A stretch of DNA of 64,000 nt from a virus (taxonomy: Duplodnaviria > Heunggongvirae > Uroviricota > Caudoviricetes): positions 317,336 to 381,335 of the IMG/VR virus record IMGVR_UViG_3300009709_000001, one strand, 5' to 3'. Both the position numbers and the translations under genes were made by a program. The notes beneath the pieces were generated by a model. The model saw only the letters and a program-made list of their open reading frames with translations. It was not told the origin of the DNA and made no database searches. Each line of letters begins with the position of its first letter. Positions within the stretch are counted from its first letter, which is position 1. Shown here piece after piece: positions 12,356 to 27,966 of the stretch.

Positions 12356-12687
12356 CAGTGAAAGCCGAGATATTTCTCAACTAACTCATTAATGTCTCTT
12401 TCGAGTTTTTCGGTATTGATGAATACCTTAATATCTCGCATCTTCTTGAATGTTTCTTCCATCACTTCCCAGTTCGCATCTTTGTTAACTGGAATTGGAT
12501 GGGTCAATTCGCTACCGCTAAGTTCAACAACATTACCATCATAATACTGCACCAAAATGTGTTCGATGTATTTTGCTGGAATTTCTTTAGCATCTACTTC
12601 TTTCACAATCCGGTCAAAGACTGATGGTTTAGCTATTCTGCTAATAGCCTTGTCGAGATTAAAGCTCGTTGTCCTTTTCGATGGCAT
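12352..12687 (-). CDS. hypothetical protein (111 aa)
   Basis: Minus-strand ORF. Confidence 0.45.
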   Translation of the reverse strand: MPSKRTTSFNLDKAISRIAKPSVFDRIVKEVDAKEIPAKYIEHILVQYYDGNVVELSGSELTHPIPVNKDANWEVMEETFKKMRDIKVFINTEKLERDINELVEKYLGFHC

Positions 12688-13223
12688 TAAATAATCTCCT
12701 TATTTTTCTTGGCATTTTTATTGCCAATTTTTGCTAGAGATAATTTCTTTCTATGCTCATCGGACATATTCTTGGTCGCTAACGACAATTTGTCTTTTTG
12801 GGCTTGAGACATAGGGGGCCTGGATTTACCGATTAAACTATTAGAAATATTCTTTTTAGTCTCCTCGGATCTTATAGCACCGAGATGTCTTTGAGAAATT
12901 TTTTCCTTCGATTCTCTAGTATGCTTATATCCGGATGTTCCTTCGACGCCGTTGGTAAAATTCCAAAGTGTTCCTGTTTCTAGATCACGACGACCAAAAA
13001 TTGATATTAAACATTCTTCGAGAAAGAATGAATGTTCTTCGTCCAGTGCATTTATAATTTCGATATTGACGGAAAATCCCGAATCTATAATCTTTTGTTT
13101 TCTAGATTCGACATTTTTATTTTTATCGACTTTAAATCTTCTACCTGTCCCCTTACCGACATAGAATGGCTCATTATTTCTTGTCGGATCTCTAAGAATA
13201 TAGGTAAAGAATTTCTTTGCCAT
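12687..13223 (-). CDS. GIY-YIG homing endonuclease (Seg-like) with NUMOD3-type repeats
   Basis: N-terminus 'FFTYILRDPTRNNEPFYVGKGTGRR' has the GIY-YIG signature. It is followed by K/S-rich 'xxHxxESKxKIS' NUMOD-like DNA-binding repeats. Confidence 0.85.
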   Translation of the reverse strand: MAKKFFTYILRDPTRNNEPFYVGKGTGRRFKVDKNKNVESRKQKIIDSGFSVNIEIINALDEEHSFFLEECLISIFGRRDLETGTLWNFTNGVEGTSGYKHTRESKEKISQRHLGAIRSEETKKNISNSLIGKSRPPMSQAQKDKLSLATKNMSDEHRKKLSLAKIGNKNAKKNKEII

Positions 13224-14902: not shown

Positions 14903-15472
14903 TTACAAAGAATACAGCAATGCAGTGATTATAGCGGAATCTTTGGCTTTCTGCAAGTCTAACCAATATTTCTTCCAATATAAATCAACTTCTTCGGGAG
15001 TTTTGAATGGCCGTTGTTTATAGGTGGTATTTCTAAGAGCTTCAGCCCTTTTAGCAATATGCTCGGGTGTTTGTTTACGACCGCGATTAGCATTACCTAT
15101 CTTTTTCTTGTGTTGTTCGGATTTTGGCTTGTCTTTGTGAAGTTTTGAGATTTCTTCAGCCACACGATTTCTTAACCATCCGTACATTTTATTCCTTTTT
15201 ACTTTTCCATCTTTGGACATTCTAACCAATGCGAAAATAAGATATGGATGTTCCGGATATATACGAACTAATAACCTATGTGCAAGCCAATGTTCTTCGG
15301 CTGTTAGTTTAACGATATTTTCGGGATCATCTGTGCCACCTATGCATCGTGGAATTATATGATGCTTTTCGCAATATCCGATAATTTCACGTGATTTGGC
15401 ACATTCGATGAGTTTATTGTATGCTTCTTGATATTTCATAACTTGAGATAATACCAGTGGATCTACATCCAA
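14903..15472 (-). CDS. HNH homing endonuclease
   Basis: 'HHIIPRCIGGTDDPENIVKLTAEEHWLAHRLL' HNH motif; paralogous to the 927..1637 product. Confidence 0.85.
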   Translation of the reverse strand: MDVDPLVLSQVMKYQEAYNKLIECAKSREIIGYCEKHHIIPRCIGGTDDPENIVKLTAEEHWLAHRLLVRIYPEHPYLIFALVRMSKDGKVKRNKMYGWLRNRVAEEISKLHKDKPKSEQHKKKIGNANRGRKQTPEHIAKRAEALRNTTYKQRPFKTPEEVDLYWKKYWLDLQKAKDSAIITALLYSL

Positions 15473-16380: not shown

Positions 16381-16614
16381 TTATCCAATTAATTCAAGGT
16401 AGTCTTGAAATTCGGGCGGGAGTCCGCGTAGACGAAGAGCAACAGCATCTTCTTGTTTTTCGAAATCGACAGTCATGGCATTACGTTCGACTTTATAGAC
16501 GACTTGTTGCTCACAAATCTGATCTACCCAATCCTTGAAGAATAATTCAACTAATAATTTCTTATCAGTCTCGATATTCTCTTTAGTCTTGAATAGTATG
16601 GATGTTCGCACCAA
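16381..16614 (-). CDS. hypothetical protein (77 aa)
   Basis: Minus-strand small ORF; 'DFEKQEDAVALRLRGL' acidic motif echo. Confidence 0.4.
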   Translation of the reverse strand: MVRTSILFKTKENIETDKKLLVELFFKDWVDQICEQQVVYKVERNAMTVDFEKQEDAVALRLRGLPPEFQDYLELIG

Positions 16615-16931: not shown

Positions 16932-17122
16932 TAATTCTTTTCCTTAGGTGTATGTTCGACTAGCCATGTAGTCGTATCGCGATAAATTCCCCTGATCGCG
17001 AATTTGGTAAATCCGTCTTCATCTAATACATGATCCCACCAACATGGTAGAAGTATCGAAAGAAGAATAACTCCGAAAGCGAGTCTAATGACTAGCCCTT
17101 CGGTGTGTGTTCTGTTAGCCAC
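16931..17122 (-). CDS. hypothetical small membrane protein (63 aa)
   Basis: Hydrophobic segment VIRLAFGVILLSILLPCWW. Confidence 0.35.
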   Translation of the reverse strand: MANRTHTEGLVIRLAFGVILLSILLPCWWDHVLDEDGFTKFAIRGIYRDTTTWLVEHTPKEKN

Positions 17123-17346
17123 TTACAGATGTCCTTATTTATTTCAGAGATCCGCAAGGCCATGCTATCTACGAAATAGGAAAACTGCTTTTGATGCACA
17201 GCCGCACGTTGGGAAGATGCGGGGTCGTAATACCACACACCGAACAAAAACATGGACCACACACCGAACAAAAACATGGCAACTAGAAAGTATTTCATAT
17301 CAATAGTCGTAAGATCTGTCGGGATCGAAACCGTACTCAAGAACAA
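17092..17346 (-). CDS. hypothetical small membrane protein (84 aa)
   Basis: Hydrophobic segment FLVAMFLFGVWSMFLFGVWYY. Confidence 0.4.
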   Translation of the reverse strand: MFLSTVSIPTDLTTIDMKYFLVAMFLFGVWSMFLFGVWYYDPASSQRAAVHQKQFSYFVDSMALRISEINKDICKWLTEHTPKG

Positions 17347-17800
17347 TTGCAGTACGTTCCGGAGGAGTTAGGCCCCATTTGCCCTCTGCAAAACTGCGGG
17401 CGTTAAGCAACGAAATATTTGCTTTTAGCGCGTGTAAATCTGCAATTTTACGCGAGTTAAGCGCGCTGTAATAATGCCGCGCTATGTTGAGCTCACGCGC
17501 ATTTGCGTTGACCCAAATCGCGGTTGTTGTGTTGGGATTGGCTTTGACATATTCGTTGAGCAGCTCAACTGCATCGCCGTAATACGGTTCTTCGACTCGG
17601 CAAATCTGTGGAGTGTCACCATTGGGCAACTCAACCCAATAACGTGTACCTGAACCACCTGCGCCCAAAGGAATGTTATATTCCTCCGAACGAATGGTCA
17701 GAATCTTGTTCATTTCCAGCTCTGTGAACTTGGGAGTTATGCTTTCCAGCGCAACATCCTCTCTCACGAACAACGGAGCATTTTCAAGGCGTTGTAACAC
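17300..17800 (-). CDS. hypothetical protein (166 aa)
   Basis: Minus-strand ORF. Confidence 0.5.
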   Translation of the reverse strand: MLQRLENAPLFVREDVALESITPKFTELEMNKILTIRSEEYNIPLGAGGSGTRYWVELPNGDTPQICRVEEPYYGDAVELLNEYVKANPNTTTAIWVNANARELNIARHYYSALNSRKIADLHALKANISLLNARSFAEGKWGLTPPERTAIVLEYGFDPDRSYDY

Positions 17801-18251
17801 TTTTATCCTTGCATTGAAGACCAGTGATATCCGGATACACCTTTACAAACTTGTCATCAGCAATATCACCGATAAACCAAGTATTGTTCGAAGTTTTGTA
17901 GAAGTTGATACCTTCAACAAAGTACCACCCGATCAACTTATCCGGCTCACTGGTATCGTTGAACAACAGGAAGAAGGCACGTTCACGTGCACCGTCAACA
18001 CAGACCTTGGACATACGTGCATACGGTCGCACCATTGCATCGAGCATTTGTTGCGTGGTAGGCTTTTCCACAGGTTCGGCTGCTGGTTGTTCAACTGCCG
18101 ATGCAGCAGCTTCTACCTTGGCCACTTCCTTAGGCTTATCATCAGAGCAGCCGCTCATAGCGGCAGTCACCAATGCAACATTGAGTGCGGTAAGGATGAT
18201 TGTTTTTAACGGCTTCATATATCTCGTAAGAATGGGGCATTTCTGCCCCAT
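17784..18251 (-). CDS. putative lipoprotein (155 aa)
   Basis: Signal peptide with lipobox 'VTAAMSGC' then a Pro/Ala-rich linker; immediately downstream of the VWA gene on the same strand. Confidence 0.5.
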   Translation of the reverse strand: MGQKCPILTRYMKPLKTIILTALNVALVTAAMSGCSDDKPKEVAKVEAAASAVEQPAAEPVEKPTTQQMLDAMVRPYARMSKVCVDGARERAFFLLFNDTSEPDKLIGWYFVEGINFYKTSNNTWFIGDIADDKFVKVYPDITGLQCKDKSVTTP

Positions 18252-18256
18252 TGTGT

Positions 18257-19456
18257 TTACCTATTGTTTTGGGGCGAATGGTTGTCCGGCTCGTACCAAG
18301 CAGTCATACCAAACGGTGCGACCAGCCGTCGTTGCGTATCGCCGTGGATGAGGAACAGAGTGTCGCAGTAATTCTCGTCACCCCAGCTACCGCAAGGATA
18401 GCCGTCAGTCATCACGATGAAGCGTTCCGGCATCACATCATTTTCCTTCATGTAATCCCAGTTCACTGTGAAGTCGGTACCGCCACCACCCTTCAGATCG
18501 TAGGTATCGATGTCATCGATATTTTCCGGCGTAAAGATCTGCGGGTTGTAAACGCGAGTGTCGAATGTCCAAACGGTAAGCTTGAAGTCCATGAACTGTT
18601 CCATGATGCCCTTGACTTCGCCGAGCAAGTCACGCAGCATGTCTTCAGACATAGAACCCGATGCGTCAATTGCCACAGCGGCCTCGACACGTACATCTTC
18701 CTTCGTACCCGGCAGGTAGATGCCGCTCGACTGAGACTTACGCGAGCAGCGACTCCAGGTGAAGTCATTGCGAATCATCGACTGAATCTTCATGTTCAGG
18801 ATTTCACGCCAATCCATCTGCGGATTGGTCAAATCCTTCAGCATGCGCTTCACACCTGCAGGCACATTGCCAGCGCCAGCTGCCTTCGAAGCTTGCATCA
18901 CGGCAGCACGGATCTCGTCGCCCAGGATACGGCGTTCTTCCTCTGTCATCGGCTCACCCTTGCCATCGCCTGGCTCCAAGTGGATGTCGAATTCGGGGAA
19001 CTTCTGGCTCGGGTCCTTCATTAGGGCTTCGTACACTTCTTCAGCGAACATACCCTTGAACTTGGGATCGAAGCAGGCAGTCACACCAGATGTCTTGGGG
19101 TCGGGGATCTTACCGACACTGTTCTCGTGGAGTTCCCAGTTGATGACGTAGTCGGCAGCAGCGTTCCAAGCCTTCGGCTTACGCGAACCACGACGACCCA
19201 TGTGGTCATAGACGCAGTGTTCCACTTCGTGCGCAACCAAGAAAATCGTTTCTTGTTTGTTCAACTTCAGAATGAAGTTGCGATTGAAGTAGAAACTGCG
19301 ACCATCGGTGGCAGCAGTGGGGCACCAGCCATCGGGATCGTCGGTAGCGTCCTTCAGAATCAAGCGAGTGGCCAACGTGCCCCAGAACGGCTGTTGCAGA
19401 AGAAGAGAGATGCGTGCTCGCGTCAGCTGTTCAAATGCTTTTTCCTGATCGGTCAT
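18257..19456 (-). CDS. VWA-domain protein with N-terminal HExxH metallopeptidase-like domain (DUF2201-type MoxR partner)
   Basis: 'VAHEVEHCVYDH' HExxH motif in the N-terminal half; MIDAS motif 'AIDASGSMS' (DxSxS) in the C-terminal half; GC-rich. Confidence 0.8.
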   Translation of the reverse strand: MTDQEKAFEQLTRARISLLLQQPFWGTLATRLILKDATDDPDGWCPTAATDGRSFYFNRNFILKLNKQETIFLVAHEVEHCVYDHMGRRGSRKPKAWNAAADYVINWELHENSVGKIPDPKTSGVTACFDPKFKGMFAEEVYEALMKDPSQKFPEFDIHLEPGDGKGEPMTEEERRILGDEIRAAVMQASKAAGAGNVPAGVKRMLKDLTNPQMDWREILNMKIQSMIRNDFTWSRCSRKSQSSGIYLPGTKEDVRVEAAVAIDASGSMSEDMLRDLLGEVKGIMEQFMDFKLTVWTFDTRVYNPQIFTPENIDDIDTYDLKGGGGTDFTVNWDYMKENDVMPERFIVMTDGYPCGSWGDENYCDTLFLIHGDTQRRLVAPFGMTAWYEPDNHSPQNNR

Positions 19457-19509
19457 AAATTTCCTTATTTGTTGCTTAATTACACTGTAGCATCACCATT
19501 GACGGACTG

Positions 19510-19731
19510 TCAAAGGGTAGCAAACTTGAGTGCGAAGAGTGTGGCTGTCTCTTCATTCTCAAACTCAATATATGGTGTCCCAAAATGGTCAATCATTCCG
19601 TACTCTGCCTTCATTTTTCTCCAGAACTCCTTAACCTCTTCAGAATCAATATCACCATTGGTTCCATAGATGCTGACATAGTTATTCCAGGCTTTGCCAA
19701 ATTGACCTTCGTATACATTCACGAGATGCAT
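19510..19731 (-). CDS. small protein, member of tandem paralog family (C-terminal 'YIEFExEExAxLFxLKF')
   Basis: 73 aa, ends 'GTPYIEFENEETATLFALKFATL'; first of four tandem paralogs. Confidence 0.5.
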   Translation of the reverse strand: MHLVNVYEGQFGKAWNNYVSIYGTNGDIDSEEVKEFWRKMKAEYGMIDHFGTPYIEFENEETATLFALKFATL

Positions 19732-19741
19732 TTTATTCTTA

Positions 19742-19963
19742 TTATGTCCATTTTAGGAGGAAGATTGTTACATCCTCCTCGGTTTCAAATTCGAGTTTAT
19801 GTCGATCAACAACTCTGATACATTTGATGTCTCTGAATGCTCGTTCAAGGCCTCCTTTGCCATCGAATTGAACTTGATCGACAAAGTTAGACCATGCGTT
19901 ATTATTCTTTTCGGAGGCCTTGGGACCGGTAACAGTTAGGTATCGAGACATTATACTGACCAC
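19742..19963 (-). CDS. small protein, tandem paralog family member
   Basis: 73 aa, ends 'HKLEFETEEDVTIFLLKWT'. Confidence 0.5.
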   Translation of the reverse strand: MVSIMSRYLTVTGPKASEKNNNAWSNFVDQVQFDGKGGLERAFRDIKCIRVVDRHKLEFETEEDVTIFLLKWT

Positions 19964-20169
19964 CTCAGAAGAAATGCAGTTGCATCCTCATCTTCTTCAA
20001 ATTCAATATATGGTGTGTCCCACAAATTATGTCCACCGAATTTTGCCAACTCTTCGAAGATGTCGTAGTAGGGTGTCGGACTATTTTCCGAAATATAATC
20101 ACGAAATCTTAACCATTCGGTTCGGTGTAAACCACCATTGACTATATCTAATCTTGTTGTCATGCCCAT
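19951..20169 (-). CDS. small protein, tandem paralog family member
   Basis: 72 aa, ends 'DTPYIEFEEDEDATAFLLRWSV'. Confidence 0.5.
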   Translation of the reverse strand: MGMTTRLDIVNGGLHRTEWLRFRDYISENSPTPYYDIFEELAKFGGHNLWDTPYIEFEEDEDATAFLLRWSV

Positions 20170-20357
20170 CTGAGCTTGAAGATCAATTCCTGTTCTTCAG
20201 ACTGGAACGGAATTTTTAGCCAATTAATATTCGTACCTAGGTTGAATTGTCGACCTTGATCAACTAACCAGGCCTCGTATTCAAGGCCAGTACCGCCAAT
20301 ATACTTACGAAAATAATCATAAGCATTTTCGAAATAGGGTTGTATCGGGAGTGCCAT
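20160..20357 (-). CDS. small protein, tandem paralog family member
   Basis: 65 aa, ends 'KIPFQSEEQELIFKLRWA'. Confidence 0.5.
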   Translation of the reverse strand: MALPIQPYFENAYDYFRKYIGGTGLEYEAWLVDQGRQFNLGTNINWLKIPFQSEEQELIFKLRWA

Positions 20358-20418
20358 AATTTATATCATATATTTTAACAAAATTAGTTATAGTCTGCAA
20401 GATATAAACATAAATACT

Positions 20419-21405
20419 ATGGTAAATGTATTCTATAAGGAATTTCTAAAGATGAAGACACACAAATGCGAAAATATGACTTGCCAGAATAAATCCGAAA
20501 AGGATAAGTACGGCAATTATAAAAGATACTGCTCGGATGAATGCAAAAAGGTATCGAGATTATTAAAATTCAAAGAAACATATCAACATAAAGATATGGG
20601 TGCAATATTACAAAAACGAAAAGATACATTATTGTCTAAGTATGGTGTCGAGAACGCAGCATGTATATCTGAGGTCAAAGAAAAACTGCGTATAACCACT
20701 ACTAATACCGCGCAAATCCGCACAATAAAAACTAAAGAGACAAACTTAGCACGTTACGGCGTTGAGAGTACAAATTCCCTTGAGTCTGTTCAAGAGAAGA
20801 AAAAGCAAACCTTACTTGAAAGGTACGGCGTAGATCATCAACTTAAAATACCAGGAGTAGCTGCCGAAGTTTCGAAGAAGAATTCGGAAAATGCTAAGGA
20901 GCGACTAGTAAAGTCGAAGAAGACCAATCTTGAAAGATATGGATGTGAAAATCCATCTGCAAACGAAGATATCAAACTCAAAAGAACTGCAACTATGATT
21001 GAACGGTTCGGTGTAGAGAATGCATCGCAGAATGCTAAGGTTCAGTCGAAAAAAGTCAGGGCCGGCTTTAAGACTAAAAAATATACTTTCCCGTCCGGAA
21101 GAATAGACCATGTCCAAGGATATGAACCTTTGGCACTCAGTCAACTTTTACAGGAGGGATATCAAGAAAATGACATTATTACGCTTGATGAATTGATGCC
21201 GGAACTATGGTATCATGAATCGGATGGATCTAAGCGCAGATATTTCCCAGATATTTATATCCCGAAAGAAAATCTATTAATCGAAGTTAAATCCGAATAT
21301 ACTTATCGCGGATTTATTGGTTGGCTAATAACCAACCAATTAAAAGAGCAATGTGCCAGAGATGCTGGATTTAATTATCGACTAATGATAATGGTAAAGA
21401 AATAA
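20419..21405 (+). CDS. putative PD-(D/E)xK-type homing endonuclease with seven N-terminal ~22-aa 'RYGVE' repeats
   Basis: Plus-strand insert between minus-strand genes. It carries tandem repeats (LLSKYGVENAA..., NLARYGVESTN..., LLERYGVDHQL..., NLERYGCENPS..., MIERFGVENAS...). The C-terminus 'FPDIYIPKENLLIEVKSEY' fits a PD...(E)VK nuclease core. 'CATAAATA' lies 2 nt upstream of the ATG. Confidence 0.6.
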   Translation: MVNVFYKEFLKMKTHKCENMTCQNKSEKDKYGNYKRYCSDECKKVSRLLKFKETYQHKDMGAILQKRKDTLLSKYGVENAACISEVKEKLRITTTNTAQIRTIKTKETNLARYGVESTNSLESVQEKKKQTLLERYGVDHQLKIPGVAAEVSKKNSENAKERLVKSKKTNLERYGCENPSANEDIKLKRTATMIERFGVENASQNAKVQSKKVRAGFKTKKYTFPSGRIDHVQGYEPLALSQLLQEGYQENDIITLDELMPELWYHESDGSKRRYFPDIYIPKENLLIEVKSEYTYRGFIGWLITNQLKEQCARDAGFNYRLMIMVKK

Positions 21406-21434
21406 AAAAGCCCGGTTTAACCGGGCTTTTTGTT
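21404..21434. terminator. bidirectional rho-independent terminator between convergent genes
   Basis: AAAAAAGCCCGG-TTTAA-CCGGGCTTTTT has an A-run before and a T-run after, so it can terminate transcription from either strand. Confidence 0.7.
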
Positions 21435-21483
21435 GATAACTTACTTTGCAAAGGCGTTGTAAGTCATTGATTTTAAAGGATTT

Positions 21484-22710
21484 TCAGTCCTCGAGGATGA
21501 ACTTGCCGTACTTGTCGTGGAACGACTTGAACTGCTTCAGCTCACGGTGGTTGATCGGCAACGAATAGTCCCGCAGCGCGGTCTTGGCTCCCAGAACGAT
21601 CATCTCAGTCTGGAAGTTGTCCATCATGAACTTGAAGAAGTGGTCCACGCACTCGTGCCATTGCTTCATGTCGAAGCCGTCGCCATCGCCCTTGCCGTTG
21701 TTCTGCTTGGCCTTCAGCGACCATTCCTGCAGCGTGTAGCAGAGGCTGATGGTCAGCGAGTACATGGCAGACAGGTCCTTGACGTTCAGCGTCTTTTCCT
21801 TGCCCATCAGCACGTCTTCCGACTTCGGCATCTTCGCCGCAACGCGACGGTGTGCAGTGAACTCGGTAGCGTTGCCTTCACCGACGGTACCTGCCACGAG
21901 GGAGGTGTTCATCGATTCCGGCAGGCTGTCGCTGATCAGCTGGGACACGAAAGTCCAGGAACGCGGCGTAGCGAACGCCTTGTCCGGCGACTTCGGATCG
22001 AAGTCGAACAGCTTCTGCTTGTGGTGCGACAGGAAGCCCACAACGTCCGGGTGAACCTTGGCGCCGATCGCCCACTTCTGCCAGTCTTCGAAGTTCGAAG
22101 TCATCTCGATGTGAACCAGACGGTTTGCCAGCGGGCTGGGCATACGGTAGGTCACGCCCTTGTCGCTGTCGCGGTTACCAGCGCACAGCATGGACACGCC
22201 ATCGGGCAGGTGGTATTCGCCGACACGACGGTTCAGGATGAGCTGGTAAGCAGCAGCCTGCACGCTCGGAGGAGCAGCGTTGATTTCGTCCAGGAACAGG
22301 ATCGCGTTGCTCATGTCGTAAGCGGCGCGGATCGACAGGGCGTATTCGCGAGCAGTTTCAGCTTCTTCGCTGACGTCCTTCTCGTCGAACTTGGCCGCAG
22401 CGGCCTCTGCCTTCTCGACGTCCTTCTTCTTGATGGACTTCGGCAGGTCGGCAGGATGTGCCCACTTCATGGTCTTGGTCTCGACGTCGAAGTAGGGGAT
22501 GCCCTTGATGTCAGTCGGTTCGAGCAGCAGCAAGCGCATGTCGATCACCTTGCGACCGGCCTTTGCGCCGATTTCAGCGATCAGTTCCGATTTGCCAATG
22601 CCCGGGGGACCCCAGATCATTGCGGGGCGGCGCACTTCCATGCAGCGCTCCAGAAGAGTCTTGACGTCCTTCGGACGTTCTTGACGGGAAGTAGAATGAT
22701 TTGCAGCCAT
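21484..22710 (-). CDS. MoxR-family AAA+ ATPase (AAA_5; CbbQ/NorQ/CobS-like)
   Basis: Walker A 'GPPGIGKS', Walker B 'LFLDEINAAPP'; GC-rich; the long antisense plus ORF 21517..22734 is judged spurious. Confidence 0.85.
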   Translation of the reverse strand: MAANHSTSRQERPKDVKTLLERCMEVRRPAMIWGPPGIGKSELIAEIGAKAGRKVIDMRLLLLEPTDIKGIPYFDVETKTMKWAHPADLPKSIKKKDVEKAEAAAAKFDEKDVSEEAETAREYALSIRAAYDMSNAILFLDEINAAPPSVQAAAYQLILNRRVGEYHLPDGVSMLCAGNRDSDKGVTYRMPSPLANRLVHIEMTSNFEDWQKWAIGAKVHPDVVGFLSHHKQKLFDFDPKSPDKAFATPRSWTFVSQLISDSLPESMNTSLVAGTVGEGNATEFTAHRRVAAKMPKSEDVLMGKEKTLNVKDLSAMYSLTISLCYTLQEWSLKAKQNNGKGDGDGFDMKQWHECVDHFFKFMMDNFQTEMIVLGAKTALRDYSLPINHRELKQFKSFHDKYGKFILED

Positions 22711-22806
22711 GTGTTCTCCAGTTGGCGGGGTTAAAATTGCGTTGTGTCTGTATTATGTCTGCATGCAACGAATGAGTCAAACGGCAAATGCAGGTACTTG
22801 GGGAAA

Positions 22807-23478
22807 TTAAGAATAATGACCACCTTTTAGGATTTTCATAATTCGAATTTGGTCTGCTTCGTATTTGGCCTGTGCAGCCTCGAAGTCTTCATCGGCCCAT
22901 TGTTGGGCAAGGCTGGGCCAATCTTCCAAAAAGATAATTACATCCCAGCCCCATTCTTCGTTACCACCTCCCCCACTGGAAGTTTTAATTCCAACAAAGT
23001 TGAGGAGATTACTCATCGGGTAAGAACCAAAATTGGTAGTACGGCTTAGGGAACCTCGACAATAACCAGTCCACCCGGGATAACCGGTAGGTTTGTTCTT
23101 ATCTTGAGCACACCAATTCATGAGTCCCCAATCAGGACGTACATGAGAATTTGATGCATGCTTAAATGATGACATATCGAGCTTGATATTTGATATGTCA
23201 TCATTTGCGTGGAAAAAGTCTCCCCACTTGCCAGCCCTAATTGTATTACACCAATCCATAAGTTGTTTCTGGTGCTTTTGAATCCAGGGGCAGATTTCAT
23301 GAAGGTAACTTACTTCTTTCTTCAGTTCGCGAAGTTCCTTCAGAATGTTCGATACAGTCTTTTCGTACCTTGCTTGTGCTACCCGTTTCTTACGGAGTTC
23401 AAGAAGGTGTTCACCATATTCAGCTCTATCTGTGAATATAGAACCAGTGAAAGGACATTTATTAACGATGATTCTCAT
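22807..23478 (-). CDS. hypothetical protein (223 aa)
   Basis: Minus-strand ORF; Trp-rich; G-rich loop (SSGGGGNEEWGWD). Confidence 0.5.
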   Translation of the reverse strand: MRIIVNKCPFTGSIFTDRAEYGEHLLELRKKRVAQARYEKTVSNILKELRELKKEVSYLHEICPWIQKHQKQLMDWCNTIRAGKWGDFFHANDDISNIKLDMSSFKHASNSHVRPDWGLMNWCAQDKNKPTGYPGWTGYCRGSLSRTTNFGSYPMSNLLNFVGIKTSSGGGGNEEWGWDVIIFLEDWPSLAQQWADEDFEAAQAKYEADQIRIMKILKGGHYS

Positions 23479-23749
23479 ATTTCAATTTAAAAATCGTTGC
23501 ATGTTCTTCATGAAGAAAATAGAATGAGAATTCGTATCTCCAGACTACATCTTTTGACCAACACCAATCGTCACCAAACTGCTCGTCACAATAGTCGAAT
23601 ATTTCATTAAATTTTAGTCCCGGGACATTGTCAAAAGAGACTTTTGTCCAATCTTGCACCTTTTCTTGCCAATTGTCGGATGTAAGTTCGAATTTAGCAA
23701 CCTTCCGAGCAAGGCTCAGGGCCTTAATATCGGCCATCGTATAACTCAT
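23462..23749 (-). CDS. hypothetical protein (95 aa), 'EDA-motif' family-like C-terminus
   Basis: Ends 'WRYEFSFYFLHEEHATIFKLKYENHR'. Confidence 0.45.
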   Translation of the reverse strand: MSYTMADIKALSLARKVAKFELTSDNWQEKVQDWTKVSFDNVPGLKFNEIFDYCDEQFGDDWCWSKDVVWRYEFSFYFLHEEHATIFKLKYENHR

Positions 23750-24087
23750 TTAACCTTCCCGGCTAAGACTTCCCACATCAACTTAGCTTCGGCCTCTTCG
23801 ATAAACGAGGGCCAGATCTCTAAAAGCTTTTCAGGCGAAATTTTGACATAGCCCTTGCGTAGTTTGCTCTCACGCAGCTTGTTTAGGTCATGACCCGTAA
23901 TATCCGCCTTAAACTGCATGGCTTTGCCCCTGCGTCCCCAGAATATGCAGCAGTTATAGCCCCAGTCTTTAGTAGTCCATGCAGCCGCATCGGGTGTGGG
24001 GCGCAAGAAGTAACCCCAGATCTTGTCCGAATTTCCCTCTTGGCACCAACCAATAAACACAAATTCTGTAGTCATAGTGTTATTCAA
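23746..24087 (-). CDS. hypothetical protein (113 aa)
   Basis: Minus-strand ORF. Confidence 0.45.
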   Translation of the reverse strand: MNNTMTTEFVFIGWCQEGNSDKIWGYFLRPTPDAAAWTTKDWGYNCCIFWGRRGKAMQFKADITGHDLNKLRESKLRKGYVKISPEKLLEIWPSFIEEAEAKLMWEVLAGKVK

Positions 24088-24096
24088 TAGTCATAA

Positions 24097-24104
24097 GATA
24101 AATA
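24097..24104 (+). promoter_or_regulatory. late-promoter-like GATAAATA box upstream of GIY-YIG gene
   Basis: GATAAATA 24 nt upstream of the ATG at 24129, with AGGAG at 24113-24117 as RBS. Confidence 0.35.
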
Positions 24105-24128
24105 TAGTTTAGCAGGAGAATAGAAATT

Positions 24129-24881
24129 ATGCAAGAATTTAAACCAACATGGTTATACATAAAGAAACACAATATCACTGGTTTACAATATTTCGGTAAA
24201 ACAAATAGATATCATCCCGAGAAATATATAGGGTCTGGAAAATACTGGCTAGCGCATTTAAGGGTGCATGGAAAAGATATATCAACAACATGGTGTGAAC
24301 TATTCTTCGACCAGCAAACATTGGTAGAATATGCGCTTAAATTTTCAAAAGAAAATAATATAGCCGAATCAAGTGAATGGGCCAATCTTAAGTTTGAAAA
24401 CGGTCTTGATGGAGGTCACAGTGGCGTGGCAAGGAGCGATGAGACAAAGGAAAAATTATCTAAGAAAAATAGAGGAAAACGACATACAAAGGAAACCAAA
24501 AATAAAATTTCAGATTCCAATAAAGGTAAACATAACATGGTAAGACCTGCAGATGTCGGAGCCAAAATTTCGAAAGCACTGACCGGTAAAAAACGAGGTC
24601 CAATGCCAGATGAAACAAAAAGAAAAATTGGTGATGCAAATAAAGGAAAACCTTCATCAAAGAAGGGTATACCAATGCCAGATGAAACAAAAAGAAAAAT
24701 TGGTGATGCAAATAAAGGAAAACCTTCATCAAAGAAGGGTATACCTAGGTCAGCTATTGATAAAGATAAAATCAGAAAAGGCCAAGAAAATGTACCCGAA
24801 ATAACTTGCCCACACTGTCATATTTCAAATAAACCCGGATGTATGAAAAGATGGCACTTTGATAATTGTAAAAAGAAATAA
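24129..24881 (+). CDS. GIY-YIG homing endonuclease with NUMOD3 repeats and C-terminal Zn finger
   Basis: N-terminus 'LYIKKHNITGLQYFGKT...YIGSGKYW' is a GIY-YIG core. It has repeated 'ETKxKISxxNKGK' modules, including an exact duplicated one. The C-terminus is 'CPHCHISNKPGCMKRWHFDNCKKK'. Confidence 0.8.
   Translation: MQEFKPTWLYIKKHNITGLQYFGKTNRYHPEKYIGSGKYWLAHLRVHGKDISTTWCELFFDQQTLVEYALKFSKENNIAESSEWANLKFENGLDGGHSGVARSDETKEKLSKKNRGKRHTKETKNKISDSNKGKHNMVRPADVGAKISKALTGKKRGPMPDETKRKIGDANKGKPSSKKGIPMPDETKRKIGDANKGKPSSKKGIPRSAIDKDKIRKGQENVPEITCPHCHISNKPGCMKRWHFDNCKKK
24600..24743 (+). repeat. perfect 72-bp tandem duplication (2 copies) inside GIY-YIG gene
   Basis: 24600-24671 is identical to 24672-24743; in the protein this duplicates 'MPDETKRKIGDANKGKPSSKKGIP' exactly. 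Confidence 0.9.
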
Positions 24882-24921: not shown

Positions 24922-25545
24922 TTAGAAGAACAAGCCGCCGAATGCAATGCAGATAATCGTCAGGACGAGCATGACCCAGAAGCCAAGCCATTCGCCGTCG
25001 GTTTTGAGGTCGCCAAAGCTCTTCGGGATGCGAATCAGCTTCGTGCCCTTGAAGAATCCACCCAGGTACGAATATTCCACCTTCTCGTAACGGGCAGTGA
25101 ACAGGCGCTTGTAGATCACACGCACCATCGTCAGGCCCACCGTCAAGAAGATCACACCGTAGAGTGCCTTCATCAGCGCTGCACCAGCGACCTTCCAGAT
25201 GATGATCAGTGCGGTCAGCTTACCCGCGTCAGACTTGAGGAAGTCATTTATCGTGACATTCAGTTCCTTGGCTGCGATGCCCATGGCCTTGGCAAAGCCT
25301 TCGGCTGCGGCAGCGGCCTGTTGGCCCCAGGTTGCAGCGAGTGTCATTGTGGCACCCACATCCTTGGCGGGCGCAGCAGCATCGGCGACACCCTTGGCCT
25401 GTTGTGCGACGATCTGGGCAGCGTGTGCCTTCAGGTCTGCGATCTGGGCATCGGACAGACCCGATGTATCGATATTCGTGCTAGCCGCGAAAGAGGTTGC
25501 GGCGCACAGTGCGAGTGCCATACCGGCGATCATTTTGCGAAACAT
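24922..25545 (-). CDS. Ala-rich membrane protein (207 aa): signal peptide plus two C-terminal TM helices
   Basis: Signal-like N-terminus (MIAGMALALCAATSFAAS), an Ala-rich periplasmic part, then TM segments (LTALIIIWKVAGAALMKALYGVIFLTVGL ... WLGFWVMLVLTIICIAFGGLFF); GC-rich. Confidence 0.55.
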   Translation of the reverse strand: MFRKMIAGMALALCAATSFAASTNIDTSGLSDAQIADLKAHAAQIVAQQAKGVADAAAPAKDVGATMTLAATWGQQAAAAAEGFAKAMGIAAKELNVTINDFLKSDAGKLTALIIIWKVAGAALMKALYGVIFLTVGLTMVRVIYKRLFTARYEKVEYSYLGGFFKGTKLIRIPKSFGDLKTDGEWLGFWVMLVLTIICIAFGGLFF

Positions 25546-25585
25546 GGTTTTCCTTTCAGAACAAAGTTTTAACTGACAAATGCAT

Positions 25586-25608
25586 TATAGGGCCACCAGG
25601 GCCCTATA
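25586..25608 (-). terminator. GGGCC-core hairpin between GC-rich genes
   Basis: TATAGGGCC-ACCAG-GGCCCTATA, a 9-bp stem; it shares a GGGCC/GGCCC core with the hairpins at 26844 and 31341. Confidence 0.4.
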
Positions 25609-25641
25609 GTCAACTGAGTTTTACGTCAATTGGAACTGGTT

Positions 25642-26820
25642 TTACCAGTCGCTGCTGCCGGAATCGCTGCTGGAGCTGCTGCCGGAGTCGGACGAACCCC
25701 AGCTGCTGCCGCTGTCGCTGCTCGAACTGGACCAGCTGCTGGAACGGCTGCTGCTGTCGTCATCGTCACGGCTGGACGAATAGCTCGGAGCAGGGGCCGG
25801 CGCGTAGTACGGTGCAGGGGCGGGAGCCGGTTCCGGGGCAGAGCTGGAGCTGAACTCGGAAGTACCACCCCACTCGGCGTCGTCCTTGGCCGAGCTGCTG
25901 AAGGTCGGTGCAGGTGCCGTGATCACGGGCGGGGTGTACGTCGAAGCACTCGAACTGTAGTCACTGGTGCCCGAGGATTCCTCGCGGCGTCGACGAGTCA
26001 CAGTGTCATCATCATGACGATGACGGAGCGCATCGCTGATCATGTTGCCAGCAACCACACCACCTGCCACTGCCACACCCGTTTCCAGAGCCGACGGACC
26101 GGTATGGACCACGGTCGGAGGAACATAGGTGGGTGCCGGAGGAGCCGTATAGGTGCGCGACGGACGGGACCATGCAGCCGGGCTCGGTGCCGGAGGCGTC
26201 GAATAGGTGCTGCGAGTGGTACCCATACCGCTACTGGCCGTGGTCACAGAGGAGGGAGCCGAGGTAGCGGTTGCAGTCACAGGACTGGAGAAGTCGACGC
26301 CACCGTCTTCAGACTTGGTCCGGCGATACCAGTAGTAGCCCAGGCCACCCAGCGTGAACAGGAACAGCAGAACCAGGAACTTGGAACCGAACGAGCTGCC
26401 TTCATCGGCCGGCTTCGTTACCGCCACGGGTTGTGCCTGCACTTGAGGTGCAGCTTGGACGACCACGGGAGGAGGGGGCGGCACATAGGCCTGGACCACC
26501 GGCTGACGGGCGCCGGCGATGTCGCGTTCCATCTTGGCGAACAGGCGCGAACCGAGCACGTCACCCTTGTGATCGTATGCGCGGACGGCGTCCAGTTCAC
26601 GCTGGGCGAGATTGGGGTCTCGTTCCAGACACATGATCGTTGCCGCATTCAGCAGGTGAGCGCGAGCGCTATCCGGGCGCGACACCAGGATCTCATTCAC
26701 GTAATTGCGCGCTTGGGCGCAGTTGCCGTTTTCCAGGGCGGATTCGACCTGCTTCGGACTGGGGAGGGCCATTGCGGTCGCAGACAGCAAGGCAAGGGAA
26801 AGGGACAGAATACGCTTCAT
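25642..26820 (-). CDS. secreted bitopic protein with TPR-like N-domain, poly-Pro linker, TM helix and Ser/Thr/Pro-rich tail (392 aa)
   Basis: Signal peptide (LSLSLALLSATAMALP), then a helical TPR-like segment and 'PPPPPVVVQAAPQVQAQP'. This is followed by the TM helix 'FLVLLFLFTLGGLGYYWY' and a long S/T/P/A-rich tail ending in SSSDSGSS repeats. About 65% GC; the antisense plus ORF 25630..26826 is judged spurious. Confidence 0.6.
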   Translation of the reverse strand: MKRILSLSLALLSATAMALPSPKQVESALENGNCAQARNYVNEILVSRPDSARAHLLNAATIMCLERDPNLAQRELDAVRAYDHKGDVLGSRLFAKMERDIAGARQPVVQAYVPPPPPVVVQAAPQVQAQPVAVTKPADEGSSFGSKFLVLLFLFTLGGLGYYWYRRTKSEDGGVDFSSPVTATATSAPSSVTTASSGMGTTRSTYSTPPAPSPAAWSRPSRTYTAPPAPTYVPPTVVHTGPSALETGVAVAGGVVAGNMISDALRHRHDDDTVTRRRREESSGTSDYSSSASTYTPPVITAPAPTFSSSAKDDAEWGGTSEFSSSSAPEPAPAPAPYYAPAPAPSYSSSRDDDDSSSRSSSWSSSSSDSGSSWGSSDSGSSSSSDSGSSDW

Positions 26821-26843
26821 GTGTAGCTCCTTGGGGGTGAAAA

Positions 26844-26865
26844 CTGGGGCCCCGAAGGGCCCCAG
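26844..26865 (-). terminator. GC-rich hairpin terminator/attenuator after AAA ATPase gene
   Basis: Minus-strand RNA: CUGGGGCCC-UUCG-GGGCCCCAG followed by UUUUCACCCCCAAGGAG(RBS)...AUG of the next gene. Confidence 0.5.
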
Positions 26866-26868
26866 GGG

Positions 26869-27966
26869 TCAGATTGCAGCCATCCAGTCGTAGTTGGCGC
26901 GGCCGTACACCTCACGGGTGAACACCACGACCGTCTGCGCCGGCGTACCTTCGTCGACCACGTAAGTGAACGTACCCGCTTCCGGTTCGATGCGCTTCAG
27001 GTGCTTCGGATTCAGCTCCAGGGTGAAGCTGTCGTCCTTGTCTTCCGGGCAGCCGGCCGACTCGCCAACGCTGATGTTCAGCTCTTCGCTGGCCACCGGG
27101 CTTCCGCGCCACGTGTCGGGGTAGATGCGGTTGGTGTCGATCGCCTTGCCTTCGCGGATGATGCTGACCTTGTGGCGCATGCTGCTGTCGGCGAACGGTT
27201 TCGCGTTGAGCAGTTCCAGCACTTGGTGCGGCGTCTCGTTGTAGCGGTTCATGTCTTCGACCAGCGCCTTCAGCATGTCGAAGTTGAAGCTTTCGTACAG
27301 CATGGCCAGACGGCAGATCGTCGGGATGTGCGTCTTGTCGTTGAGGCGATCGTTGCAGTATTCTTCGATGAACGCTGCGTCGATGCCCTTGTACTCCAGG
27401 CAGTAGAAGACACGACCCGGCCGATTGCGCATGTGGCTGTTGACGCGGTACTTGTCGTTGCAGGTCAGGATGAACAGCTTCTTGCTCGGGAACACGCCGT
27501 CGAGCAGGGTCAGGATAGCTTCCTGTTCCTTTTCGCCGAACACCTTCTCGAACTCGTCGAACACGACCACGCACGGCTGGTTGATGTTCTGAATGAAGGC
27601 GTTGAAGCCGTCACCGCAGAAGTCGCTGTTGATGACCAGGACGGGCATGTTGTGCGCTTCAACCGCGTTCTTGGCGATGAGCTTGGCCAACATCGTCTTG
27701 CCCGAACCCTTTTCGCCGGTCAGCAGCACACCAGTGCTGTTCGGGCGATCGAGGAAGGTGCTCATGATGCGATCAGCACGGCCGTGGATGTTGCCGTAGA
27801 TCTTGCCGTCGATGTTGAAGTTGTTGATGGGCTTCAAGAAGAAGCCTCGGCCCGGCATTGCACCGACCGTGTACGTGCCCGGGGGCAGCGTCTCGTGCAT
27901 GTCGAGCGCCGCTTTCGGGGTGGGGAAAAACAAGCCGCCTTCGCGGGAGAAAATGGTGCTACTCAT
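26869..27966 (-). CDS. classical-clade AAA ATPase (365 aa)
   Basis: Walker A 'GEKGSGKT', Walker B 'VVVFDEFE', SRH-like 'TCNDKYRVNSHMRNRPGRVFY'; a ~90-aa N-terminal domain; GC-rich. Confidence 0.8.
   Translation of the reverse strand: MSSTIFSREGGLFFPTPKAALDMHETLPPGTYTVGAMPGRGFFLKPINNFNIDGKIYGNIHGRADRIMSTFLDRPNSTGVLLTGEKGSGKTMLAKLIAKNAVEAHNMPVLVINSDFCGDGFNAFIQNINQPCVVVFDEFEKVFGEKEQEAILTLLDGVFPSKKLFILTCNDKYRVNSHMRNRPGRVFYCLEYKGIDAAFIEEYCNDRLNDKTHIPTICRLAMLYESFNFDMLKALVEDMNRYNETPHQVLELLNAKPFADSSMRHKVSIIREGKAIDTNRIYPDTWRGSPVASEELNISVGESAGCPEDKDDSFTLELNPKHLKRIEPEAGTFTYVVDEGTPAQTVVVFTREVYGRANYDWMAAI

Follow-up and report, generated by a model that had tools for sequence, protein, structure and literature searches.

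A probable conserved MoxR-class AAA+ ATPase and zincin-VWA gene module with accessory DNA in its spacer

Description of the locus

The locus is, with good probability, a conserved module of jumbo phages of the PA5oct/RaK2 type: a gene for a MoxR-class AAA+ ATPase, then a gene for a zincin-VWA adaptor, with accessory DNA in the spacer between them. The window is the whole stretch of DNA analysed, 64,000 nucleotides long. All open reading frames placed by an earlier note on this DNA were reproduced in it. Both genes are intact; neither is broken. A selfish homing-endonuclease gene and four small genes lie between them and account for the 2 kb that separates them. The separation is genuine but is ordinary phage mosaicism. 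The gene pair itself is already known (Iyer et al. 2021; PMC7824862).

Hundreds of large phages, and many bacteria, have the two genes next to each other. The order is ATPase then VWA in 66 of 66 IMG/VR loci carrying both genes; Phosso, Atu_ph07 and CBB have it too, as do 72 of 80 bacterial or MAG loci. Chromosomal copies of the module occur in cyanobacteria, Deinococcus and Chloroflexi, and Pfam-confirmed pairs occur in genome or MAG loci of Calothrix and Dictyobacter; no bacterial homologue is above 56% identity. To judge from gene order, the two are ancient neighbours and ATPase then VWA is the ancestral arrangement. Adjacency, like order, is conserved in these 72 and 66 loci.

Phage records number 849 for the ATPase and 813 for the VWA gene, with nearly identical organism distributions. 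Rates of divergence are similar (nucleotide identity to the endonuclease-free relative L084 ~82% for the ATPase and ~81% for the VWA gene). The term obligate pair, used in the earlier note, agrees with this nearly perfect co-occurrence across roughly 800 phages but may be too strict in one respect: related phages also have a paralogous zincin-VWA gene without a MoxR neighbour, and the partnership may therefore not be strictly obligate. In the window the pair sits among replication-type genes. Synteny of the flanking genes (up223, p113 and a lipoprotein gene) is kept in relatives.

Description of the ATPase gene

MoxR-class (NorQ/CbbQ-like, AAA_5) AAA+ ATPase of 408 aa, encoded at 21484..22710 on the minus strand and assigned by Pfam, PHROG and Foldseek. 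Walker A is GPPGIGKS (22588..22611, minus strand) and Walker B is ILFLDE (22285..22302, minus strand), both identified by motif conservation. Scores for AAA and AAA_5 exceed the Pfam cut-offs; AAA_3, the core MoxR model of Pfam, is under its cut-off (21.3 vs 27 bits). PHROG 1297 is matched over the full length (E 1e-96). The motifs are at least 95% conserved in an alignment of 50 ATPase homologues. Sensor-1 N179, R197 and a sensor-2-like R250 are also conserved, and residues ~92–136 form a variable helical insert. The AF2 model has a pLDDT of 79; the predicted helix-2-insert features are visible in this model alone. Its best Foldseek matches are NorQ 9qh4 (E 1.5e-7) and CbbQ 6l1q, 5c3c. A CobS/CobT-like reading of the pair, offered earlier, was rejected: the match to PHROG 249 covers the Walker A region only.

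Description of the VWA gene and the downstream lipoprotein gene

Zincin-like metallopeptidase domain (DUF2201_N) fused to a VWA domain (DUF2201), 399 aa, encoded at 18257..19456 on the minus strand; assigned by Pfam, PHROG and conservation. The zinc-binding/catalytic motif HEVEH occupies residues 76–80 (19217..19231, minus strand). The MIDAS is DASGS (DxSxS, D264-x-S266-x-S268; 18653..18667, minus strand) and is completed by T327 and D351. The N-terminal HExxH domain and the C-terminal VWA domain with intact MIDAS are thus as first described. Pfam supplies the domain assignment, with DUF2201_N 'putative metallopeptidase' at E 5e-36 and DUF2201 'VWA-like' at E 3e-12, and PHROG 1314 is matched over the full length (E 2e-104). 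All motifs are at least 95% conserved in 66 homologues, save MIDAS T327 (70–95%). On alignment neither the MIDAS nor a Walker motif is degenerate, and Pfam, PHROG and motif conservation agree on the proposed identities, MoxR ATPase and HExxH-VWA protein.

The conserved gene downstream of the VWA gene encodes a predicted lipoprotein of 144 aa with lipobox AMSGC (17784..18218, minus strand). The lipobox cysteine is present in five of six homologues. Its place downstream of the VWA gene and its lipobox bear out the earlier annotation; the start is most likely 18218 (MKPLK...AMSGC) instead of the 18251 given there.

Description of the spacer, promoters and terminator

The spacer (19457..21483) is 2,027 bp long with 37.4% GC. 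It contains a candidate bidirectional terminator, an opposite-strand endonuclease gene, a VWA promoter candidate and four small paralogs that are translationally coupled. The candidate intrinsic terminator (21405..21431, no strand assigned) is a symmetric GC-rich hairpin between an A-run and a T-run and is common to the convergent ATPase and endonuclease genes; in relatives, too, a hairpin lies just 3' of the ATPase stop codon. The candidate sigma-70-like promoter of the ATPase gene is TTGACT-17-CATAAT (22752..22780, minus strand), kept in L084 as TTGACC-17-CATAAT. That of the VWA gene is TTGACA-18-TACAGT followed by a ribosome-binding site AAGGAA (19484..19513, minus strand), with TTGACA-18-TAAACT at this position in L084. 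These promoter and terminator calls are consensus matches and occur no more often than in shuffled sequence.

The 96-bp spacers of some relatives still hold the terminator hairpin and then TTGACT-17-TATAAT. Because of this, and because the window and L084 share conserved promoter-like sites ahead of both genes, the single-operon reading fails; the genes appear to be neighbours with separate sigma-70-like promoters. Of the ancestral operon disrupted by insertions that the earlier note described, the ancestral adjacency and the varying spacer content remain. The operon and the disruption do not, as there are separate promoter candidates and both genes are intact. That separation and independent promoters have uncoupled the two proteins in this phage is very unlikely. 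The terminator and separate promoter-like sites between the genes would suit such an uncoupling, as would the zincin-VWA paralog that lacks a MoxR neighbour, but relatives whose spacer is 96 bp have the same layout, both proteins keep every catalytic and binding motif, divergence is similar (ATPase 82–84% amino-acid identity to nearest relatives, besides the nucleotide values for L084 given above) and co-occurrence is near perfect across the roughly 800 phages.

In 37 close relatives the spacer is between 96 bp and 7,733 bp long. The genes are therefore 96 bp apart in some related phages, in line with the adjacency expected earlier; in the nearest relatives (82–84% ATPase amino-acid identity) the spacer is 351 or 558 bp, without endonuclease and with one or two small genes. 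In PA5oct this spacer carries another endonuclease, together with three small genes that are unrelated. The short stretch that separates the VWA promoter from the ATPase terminator is probably a clade-wide accumulation site for accessory DNA. It is very unlikely that the spacer genes are old residents, with nothing inserted here and the compact arrangement elsewhere due to deletion. Most close relatives do have at least one small spacer ORF, the nearest ones have a homologue of s1 (described below), and spacer GC equals the genome baseline. Nevertheless, the genes adjoin in outgroups at every distance (a phage group at 43–50% identity, Phosso, Atu_ph07, CBB, and 72 bacterial or MAG loci), the spacers of relatives differ in kind without a nested deletion pattern, and the endonuclease is seen in both orientations.

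Description of the small paralogs

Four small genes, s1 to s4, lie on the minus strand. s1 (19510..19731, 73 aa) is homologous to the single spacer gene of L084 (E 5.7e-10); its AF2 model is beta-alpha-alpha-beta-beta-alpha with pLDDT 89. s2 (19742..19951, 69 aa) has a start overlapping the s3 stop (TAATG), and s3 (19951..20163, 70 aa) a start overlapping the s4 stop (ATGA). s4 (20160..20357, 65 aa) is the most divergent. s1, s2 and s3 match one another significantly (phmmer 1.8e-5, 5e-4 and 0.007–0.013 against 468 window ORFs), and s4 joins only through the family profile, the C-terminal motif that it shares and a homologue in the L030 spacer at 45% identity. Four tandem paralogs, as reported before, are thus recognised on these two grounds, with the starts of s2 and s3 revised to, most likely, 19951 and 20163 from the overlaps and gene calls. 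The family is unannotated and has at least 725 clusters; it appears to be a fast-evolving, undescribed family of small proteins. Not all four genes can be counted as insertions, since the L084 spacer already holds the s1 homologue: the nearest relatives share one paralog as a resident gene, and this phage has three more.

Description of the endonuclease gene

Putative free-standing Hef-like homing endonuclease gene (DUF7487) of 328 aa and 36.6% GC, at 20419..21405 on the plus strand, tail-to-tail with the ATPase gene. It matches Pfam DUF7487 (E 7e-56) and PHROG 3339/12131 'homing endonuclease'. In the protein, a Cys4 zinc ribbon lies at the N-terminus and a nuclease domain of PD-(D/E)xK type at the C-terminus; there are also five (K/R)(Y/F)G(V/C)(E/D)x repeats. 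The catalytic motif PD(278)...E(289)VK(291) (21247..21291, plus strand), identified by conservation, is kept in 8 homologues; with the DUF7487 match it upholds the plus-strand PD-(D/E)xK endonuclease reported earlier between the genes. Homologues are annotated as Hef, F-LimVIII or HJR nuclease. Pfam matches to TnsA-like_N and DpnII-MboI are weak and sub-threshold. Among the 37 relatives, nine have homologues, always 71–244 nt from the ATPase stop, in both orientations, at 29–69% identity vs 75–90% for the flanking ATPase. About ten endonuclease-like genes are set between conserved genes in the 64 kb window.

During co-infection the endonuclease would cut endonuclease-free alleles near the ATPase 3' end or in the spacer, and recombinational repair would then copy its gene into the cut allele. 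A co-conversion tract joining the ATPase 3' end to endonuclease-bearing relatives was looked for and not found; recent homing is therefore unsupported. It is considered unlikely that the DUF7487 protein is no active homing endonuclease, having decayed or having been taken over as a nuclease for another task, for instance regulation or competition with co-infecting phages. Its absent co-conversion tract, the low mutual identity of the copies (only 29–69%), the failure to find near-identical copies in otherwise divergent genomes and a PD-(D/E)xK call made from the motif and sub-threshold Pfam matches are all compatible with this. Against it, the ORF is full length (328 aa vs 318–367 aa in six of seven homologues; the L052 copy has 663 aa), zinc ribbon, repeats and PD..EVK are all conserved, the distribution is patchy yet always beside the same conserved gene, and the family is annotated as Hef-like, Hef being listed as a homing endonuclease (Sandegren 2005, as cited in PMC3296691).

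Base composition

GC content is 58.4% for the ATPase gene and 53.5% for the VWA gene, not about 60% for both as first stated; that of the window is 43%. GC3 is 0.79 and 0.65, respectively, with a baseline of ~0.38 (DNA polymerase 0.39). Spacer GC is at the genome baseline; it is the ATPase and VWA genes that stand out in composition. This inverts the argument from an AT-rich spacer, formerly taken as a sign of insertion. In L084 and PA5oct the two genes are likewise GC-rich outliers. The outlying GC3, shared by these phages, would fit a GC-rich pair that is itself the mobile part, brought by recent transfer or recombination into an AT-rich genome with a native spacer. A 120-nt ATPase segment, 96% identical to L003 vs 86% to the overall nearest relative, points the same way and indicates mosaic recombination. 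This origin is nevertheless quite unlikely. The GC contrast is common to lineages only 48% identical and is therefore old and maintained, not recent; bacterial homologues are all at or below 56% identity; the synteny of up223, p113 and the lipoprotein gene is kept; and codon adaptation of highly expressed genes accounts for the contrast just as well.

Proposed mechanism

The preferred reading, a conserved ATPase and zincin-VWA module, suggests the following action. By analogy with NorQ/NorD and CbbQ/CbbO, the ATPase would form a hexamer gripping the VWA domain. Through its MIDAS this domain would bind an acidic residue in the target protein, and ATP-driven pulling would remodel both target and adaptor. 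Cleavage or processing of the presented protein would then fall to the fused HExxH domain. The target could come from the host or be a protein of the virion or its assembly.

Comparison with known systems

A MoxR-vWA tail-assembly chaperone of Acidianus two-tailed virus (Scheele et al. 2011, as cited in PMC7824862 and PMC7159879) is likewise a virus-encoded pair; as described in the citing papers, it is without a peptidase domain and belongs to an archaeal virus, and the two are likened by description only.

Homing endonucleases cluster at essential or conserved genes in 'HEG islands' (Barth, Dunham and Seed 2023; PMC10448857). The ~ten endonuclease-like genes between conserved genes of the 64 kb window are similar, whereas a long identical tract with endonuclease genes on either side was not found here. 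Free-standing Hef and Hef-like homing endonucleases are known from T4-related phages (Sandegren, Nord and Sjoberg 2005, as cited in PMC3296691), and LIMEstone1 has the Hef-like F-LimIII, VII, VIII and X (PMC3296691). The putative homing-endonuclease gene of the window shares tblastn homology with such genes, including ones annotated Hef or F-LimVIII, and is free-standing, intergenic beside a conserved gene and patchy among close relatives. It differs in having only 26–38% identity over partial length to named examples and in occurring in both orientations at one site.

NorQD structures have a VWA finger in the hexamer pore (PMC13036017). NorQ/NorD and CbbQ/CbbO have the nearest solved ATPase folds and a MIDAS-bearing VWA partner encoded next door. 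Sequence identity of the phage ATPase to NorQ/CbbQ is only 12–15%. Unlike these, it has a C-terminal helical extension of ~100 aa and the variable insert; its VWA partner is short, with a zincin domain in place of the N-terminal regions of NorD/CbbO, and the metal-insertion or Rubisco context is absent.

The closest counterpart, exemplified by ASV44729.1 and ASV44728.2, is from 'group 2.2' jumbo phages: a MoxR AAA+ protein paired with a metallopeptidase-vWA protein, with a proposed role in virion assembly with proteolytic processing (Iyer, Anantharaman, Krishnan, Burroughs and Aravind 2021, Viruses 13:63; PMC7824862). In that paper the spacer is not described as an insertion hotspot, and the window genes, in contrast to its description, lie among replication-type genes with sigma-70-like promoter candidates. 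Families, N-terminal HExxH peptidase-vWA fusion and gene order are the same, as is the phage group, the database matches being PA5oct, RaK2, 121Q, CBB and Atu_ph07.

MoxR-class ATPase

Protein of 408 aa, encoded on the minus strand (22710 to 21484). The Pfam families AAA and AAA_5 are above threshold (AAA_5 26.2 bits, cut-off 22); AAA_3, the core MoxR model, scores 21.3 vs a cut-off of 27. AAA_3 hits (precomputed) and the JGI name 'MoxR-like ATPase' are carried by many homologues of 70–77% identity, and the Calothrix homologue scores 27.2 with AAA_3. Full-length match to phrog_1297 'ATPase' in PHROGs. The Walker A and MoxR/AAA_5 motifs that the earlier note had read by eye in 21484..22710 are in place, with Walker A GPPGIGKS at 22588..22611 and Walker B ILFLDE at 22285..22302, both on the minus strand. 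Together with AGN179R, PLANR197 and TPR250 they are either invariant or conserved to at least 95% across 50–56 aligned homologues.

The predicted fold, taken from an AlphaFold2 model (56-sequence alignment, pLDDT 79), is NorQ/CbbQ-like. Foldseek ranks 1–16 are NorQ and CbbQ, with E-values of 1.5e-7 to 3e-6 and a TM-score normalised to the target of about 0.6; other AAA+ clades are lower. NorQ and CbbQ are MoxR-family ATPases whose partners are the VWA proteins NorD and CbbO. As to the helix-2 insert and the pre-sensor-1 beta-hairpin, a beta-hairpin is modelled at residues 71–84, between Walker A and Walker B, and residues 160–172 are of low confidence. Sequence search of solved structures yields Midasin Walker A matches only. 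The comparison with CobS/CobT-like systems made from the sequence alone did not hold: PHROG 249 'porphyrin biosynthesis' covers only residues 14–58 (Walker A), and no NCBIfam match is obtained.

Homologues of 70–85% identity fall into two length classes, about 364 aa and about 402 aa, and the window copy is the long form. The extra segment, at about residues 92–136, falls between Walker A and Walker B (about 22303–22437; modelled as a helical hairpin); residues of about 333–350 are noted along with it. A 120-nt segment of the gene (alignment columns 600–720, about 21990–22110) is 96% identical to the homologous locus L003 and 86% identical to L084, the nearest relative overall, which suggests a small recombination tract within the gene.

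Zincin-VWA protein

Protein of 399 aa, encoded on the minus strand (19456 to 18257) and followed in transcription order by an ORF for a small predicted lipoprotein on the same strand. Pfam DUF2201_N, 'putative metallopeptidase', matches with an E-value of 5e-36 over profile positions 5–269 of 271, and DUF2201, 'VWA-like', with an E-value of 3e-12. The HExxH motif and the intact MIDAS DxSxS motif claimed for this protein are both present, as HEVEH at 19217..19231 and as DASGS at 18653..18667 (minus strand); T327 and D351 complete the MIDAS. Conservation among 66 homologues is at least 95% for H76, E77 and H80 of HExxH and for D264, S266, S268 and D351 of the MIDAS, and 70–95% for T327. D84 and H85 are candidates, by position, for the third zinc ligand of the zincin domain. 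Sequence search of solved structures gives a weak match to the MJ1213 zincin only. Degeneration of the MIDAS or Walker motif, which by the earlier note would have refuted its reading, is not seen in the 50 ATPase and 66 VWA homologues aligned.

The protein matches phrog_1314 over its full length, and the PHROG label of that family is 'HNH endonuclease'. 'HNH endonuclease' or 'homing endonuclease' is also the name of the zincin-VWA gene in many RefSeq/GenBank records, NC_071039, NC_042013, NC_041878 and NC_019526 among them. This looks like a propagated annotation error.

A second zincin-VWA paralog, 67–73% identical to the window protein, is found in loci L039–L048 of related phages (e.g. L043, 5434–12493; L037 and L043 lie on one contig of 362,810 bp). 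No MoxR ATPase is found within 10 kb upstream of this paralog or in its 1.2–10 kb downstream flank. Its neighbours form a conserved block of a ClpX-like AAA+ protein, Hsp20, a 345-aa protein, Fe/Mn superoxide dismutase, VWA2 and ATP-dependent DNA ligase.

Distribution and ancestry of the pair

The ATPase is found in 849 phage records and the VWA gene in 813, with almost identical distribution over organisms. The nearest cultured relatives by protein are the Pseudomonas phage PA5oct group (48–51% identity), followed by Phosso, SCTP-2, Atu_ph07 and the CBB/RaK2/121Q group. Megablast of 17000–24000 against sequenced phages gives no match, so the window phage has no close cultured relative. Positions 19199..24629 are 100% identical to a Logan contig of SRR5829574, and the identical ATPase recurs on a JGI contig of 385,394 bp, which makes the source an uncultivated jumbo phage; an exact match to the VWA protein was sought and not found. 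In IMG/VR, 80 loci carry a VWA homologue, and the ATPase gene is upstream on the same strand wherever both genes occur; the spacers are about 78–494 bp in a more distant group (43–50% identity), except for about 1.1 kb in one lineage of that group. Searching 185,579 species genomes with the ATPase gave 80 genome or MAG loci. In 72 the next gene, on the same strand, encodes DUF2201_N+DUF2201, and the remaining 8 are cut by contig ends. Genuine chromosomes among these loci include those of Calothrix (next to dnaA), Dictyobacter, Deinococcus and Herpetosiphon; the pair is confirmed with Pfam in two, Calothrix brevissima NIES-22 (L115, 6007–8253) and Dictyobacter kobayashii (L122). No mobile-element genes occur near the cassette in L115 and L122. 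In free-living bacteria the cassette stands in ordinary chromosomal contexts, by dnaA, HtrA-like protease and pentapeptide-repeat genes.

The order and adjacency kept across phages and chromosomes argue that the pair is an ancient two-gene cassette, with the side-by-side arrangement as the ancestral state. The proposal that an ancestral neighbouring pair was later separated by a mobile endonuclease and accessory genes is right in substance. Both genes stay intact and conserved whatever sits between them, which argues for selection on both. The pair itself is not new: a MoxR AAA+ ATPase and a vWA protein with an N-terminal metallopeptidase fusion were already reported from the 'group 2.2' jumbo phages by Iyer et al. 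2021 (PMC7824862), who suggested that they act in virion assembly coupled with proteolytic processing. No experimental work on the pair was found in the literature. Carried by about 800 sequenced phages and with over 8,000 homologues in metagenomes, it ranks among the most widespread modules of large phages that are still uncharacterised.

The spacer between the two genes

The distance from ATPase stop to VWA start, 2,027 bp in the window (19457..21483), ranges from 96 to 7733 bp among 37 close relatives (63–85% VWA identity). Shorter distances are 96, 157, 304, 316, 446, 540–597, 759–773, 847 and 979 bp; longer ones are 1217, 1540, 1634, 1996, 2430, 3090, 3825, 4757, 5458, 5493, 7217 and 7733 bp. 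The spacer of these relatives holds nothing, 1 to 25 small ORFs, DUF7487 endonucleases or other large genes. It is a natural permissive insertion site in this phage clade. Target-site duplications are not detected, and a DNA repeat search returns a single 30-nt stretch shared by two of the small genes. No tRNA or Rfam family is found in 17–24 kb, and PADLOC assigns none of the genes here to a defence system.

Putative endonuclease of 328 aa, encoded on the plus strand (20419..21405) and convergent with the ATPase gene. Matches DUF7487 with an E-value of 7e-56. Contains a Cys4 zinc ribbon, five (K/R)(Y/F)G(V/C)(E/D)x repeats and a C-terminal P277-D278...E289-V-K291; PD..EVK is present in all 8 homologues, and the zinc ribbon and repeats are conserved as well. 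Homologues are named Hef, Hef-like F-LimVIII, 'homing endonuclease' and 'HJR family nuclease'. TnsA-like_N and DpnII-MboI are PD-(D/E)xK folds, and the C-terminal domain alone matches both below the Pfam threshold (0.0036 and 0.01), a possible link to that superfamily at sub-threshold level. Sequence search of solved structures gives nothing meaningful. Among the free-standing homing endonucleases of T4-related phages, the Hef-like enzymes form an established class (PMC3296691, citing Sandegren 2005).

Homologues of the endonuclease occur in 9 of the 37 relatives, always at a distance of 71–244 nt from the ATPase stop. In 6 the gene shares the strand of the ATPase gene, and in 3 it is on the opposite strand, as in the window; orientation does not track similarity. 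The copies are 29–69% identical to one another, and the flanking ATPases 75–90%. Patchy, fixed in site and divergent, they show the pattern of a free-standing homing endonuclease gene. Related genomes free of the endonuclease, the comparison suggested in the earlier note, are the nearest relatives L084–L089 (ATPase 82–84% identical), in which the spacer either measures 351 bp and holds one gene of 82 aa or measures 558 bp and holds two small genes. The window and L084–L089 are natural alleles with and without the gene, suited to a test of homing. When the ATPase and VWA genes are compared by sliding identity with endonuclease-bearing and endonuclease-free relatives, no signal of co-conversion appears, and the ATPase 3' end is no nearer to the bearers than is the remainder of that gene; this comparison lends no support to recent homing.

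In PA5oct the spacer carries gp339, a protein of 498 aa annotated as 'putative homing endonuclease', along with three unrelated small genes. The sole feature that gp339 has in common with the window enzyme is the YGV(E/D)N repeat; it was rejected as an orthologue on this ground and counts as an independent insertion at that site.

About ten endonuclease-like genes (HNH, GIY-YIG/NUMOD3, Hef-like) are present in the window, mostly AT-rich (GC 0.32–0.37) and several on the opposite strand. They lie at 927–1637, 12687–13223, 14903–15472, 20419–21405, 24129–24881 and 28365–29192 in the first half and at 36881–37558, 46909–47592, 61389–62000 and 63170–63709 in the second. The NUMOD3 gene at 24129–24881 is missing in L084, which has an 82-bp spacer instead.

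Small-protein family s1–s4

Four small ORFs (20357 to 19510), on the minus strand, tightly packed with ATGA and TAATG overlaps. Proteins s1, s2 and s3 are mutually similar at significance; s4 is related at profile level only. The 30-nt stretch common to s1 and s3 is 83% identical. Motifs common to the four are a mid-protein W-x-(N)-F and a C-terminal (Y)IEFETEEDAxxFxLKW. At least four further, more divergent copies are in the window, at 411–704, 16381–16614, 23462–23749 and 49910–50188. Tandem arrays occur in relatives, with six copies in the L032 spacer. In L084 the one gene in the spacer is homologous to s1 (E 5.7e-10), and an ORF in the L087–L089 spacers is s3-like (E 2e-8). An HMM scan of 1.84 billion representative proteins gives at least 725 clusters (50% identity, E ≤ 1e-3), nearly all of 60–100 aa. 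No Pfam or PHROG family is matched by s1–s4 or by 45 sampled members. Likeness of G-x-P-Y-I-E-F-E-T-E-E-D-A to RRM beta3-alpha2 (nucleolin, E about 1.5) was rejected as not significant, and a match to the RNase H1 N-terminal domain was rejected because it came from one member only (E 0.004).

Transcription signals

A candidate symmetric hairpin with A-run and T-run lies at 21405..21431, between the ATPase stop and the endonuclease stop. Upstream of the VWA gene are TTGACA-18-TACAGT, to which TTGACA-18-TAAACT corresponds in position in L084, and an AAGGAA ribosome-binding site. In relatives with the minimal 96-bp spacer, a hairpin is followed by TTGACT-17-TATAAT. TTGAC(T/C)-17-CATAAT, common to the window and L084, precedes the ATPase gene. 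All these signals are consensus matches only. Transcription of PA5oct depends on host RNA polymerase, with TTGAC/TATAATA promoters (PMC7318152).

The two genes had been described as a disrupted operon. The candidate hairpin and T-run after the ATPase stop and the TTGACx-17/18-TAxxxT before the VWA gene, in the window, L084 and the 96-bp relatives, argue otherwise: at consensus level, the genes appear to be neighbours with separate signals, not one operon. The insertions would fall between the terminator and promoter candidates.

Base composition

The mean GC content of the window is 43.2%; that of the spacer is 37.4%, near baseline. GC3 is 0.30–0.45 in almost all genes of the window, DNA polymerase included. 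The outliers are the genes of the pair, with 0.79 for the ATPase and 0.65 for the VWA protein, along with a few neighbours at 24.9–28.0 and 31.4–32.6 kb. L084 has the same contrast. In PA5oct, GC3 is 0.67 in the ATPase gene, 0.50 in the VWA gene and 0.14–0.28 in all 22 neighbours; the contrast is weaker in other lineages. The GC contrast noted earlier between the pair and the sequence separating it is therefore real, but its meaning is different, since the spacer is near the baseline and the outliers are the two genes; as evidence of insertion it was rejected. The GC3 excess may stem from high expression, with codons adapted to a GC-rich host, from repeated transfer or from biased repair at a recombination hotspot.

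Besides the pair, the GC3 outliers (0.65–0.86; 21484–22710, 18257–19456, 24922–27966, 31365–32612) comprise several genes for membrane or secreted proteins and one for a classic AAA ATPase. This classic AAA ATPase (26869–27966, 365 aa, Pfam AAA E 3e-12) lies 4 kb upstream of the MoxR gene and is followed by a 392-aa Ser/Pro-rich secreted protein (25642–26820) and a 207-aa membrane protein (24922–25545). All three genes of this block, 24922–27966, are GC-rich, and the block is kept in L084.

Proposed function and comparison with known systems

By analogy with NorQD (PMC13036017) and CbbQO, the ATPase would form a hexamer and engage the VWA domain, and the MIDAS would bind an acidic residue of the target protein; ATP-driven pulling would remodel the target, and the fused zincin domain would cleave it. 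The ATPase of PA5oct carries an 'ESI-MS/MS' note in its GenBank record, and the ATPase and VWA genes sit among replication-type genes. With the ClpX-like, Hsp20, superoxide dismutase, VWA2 and DNA ligase block around the second paralog, these observations point loosely to protein quality control or assembly. Expression data for the PA5oct pair, gp335 and gp340, were not found in the PA5oct paper and its supplements.

The locus leaves current understanding unchanged. It flags the mis-annotation of zincin-VWA genes and a large unannotated small-protein family, which remains of interest along with the insertion hotspot and the GC3 excess. A broader reading, judged improbable, makes the spacer a clade-wide accessory-gene 'cradle', in which the small-protein family would be gained and expanded in tandem as a result of cuts by homing endonucleases; its members may be host-takeover or counter-defence factors travelling with the endonuclease. 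Under this 'cradle' reading, the recombination hotspot might also have left its mark in the GC3 enrichment of the two flanking genes. The arrangement would then parallel that of T-even phages, in which SegB drives the amplification of anti-defence loci (PMC13096335).
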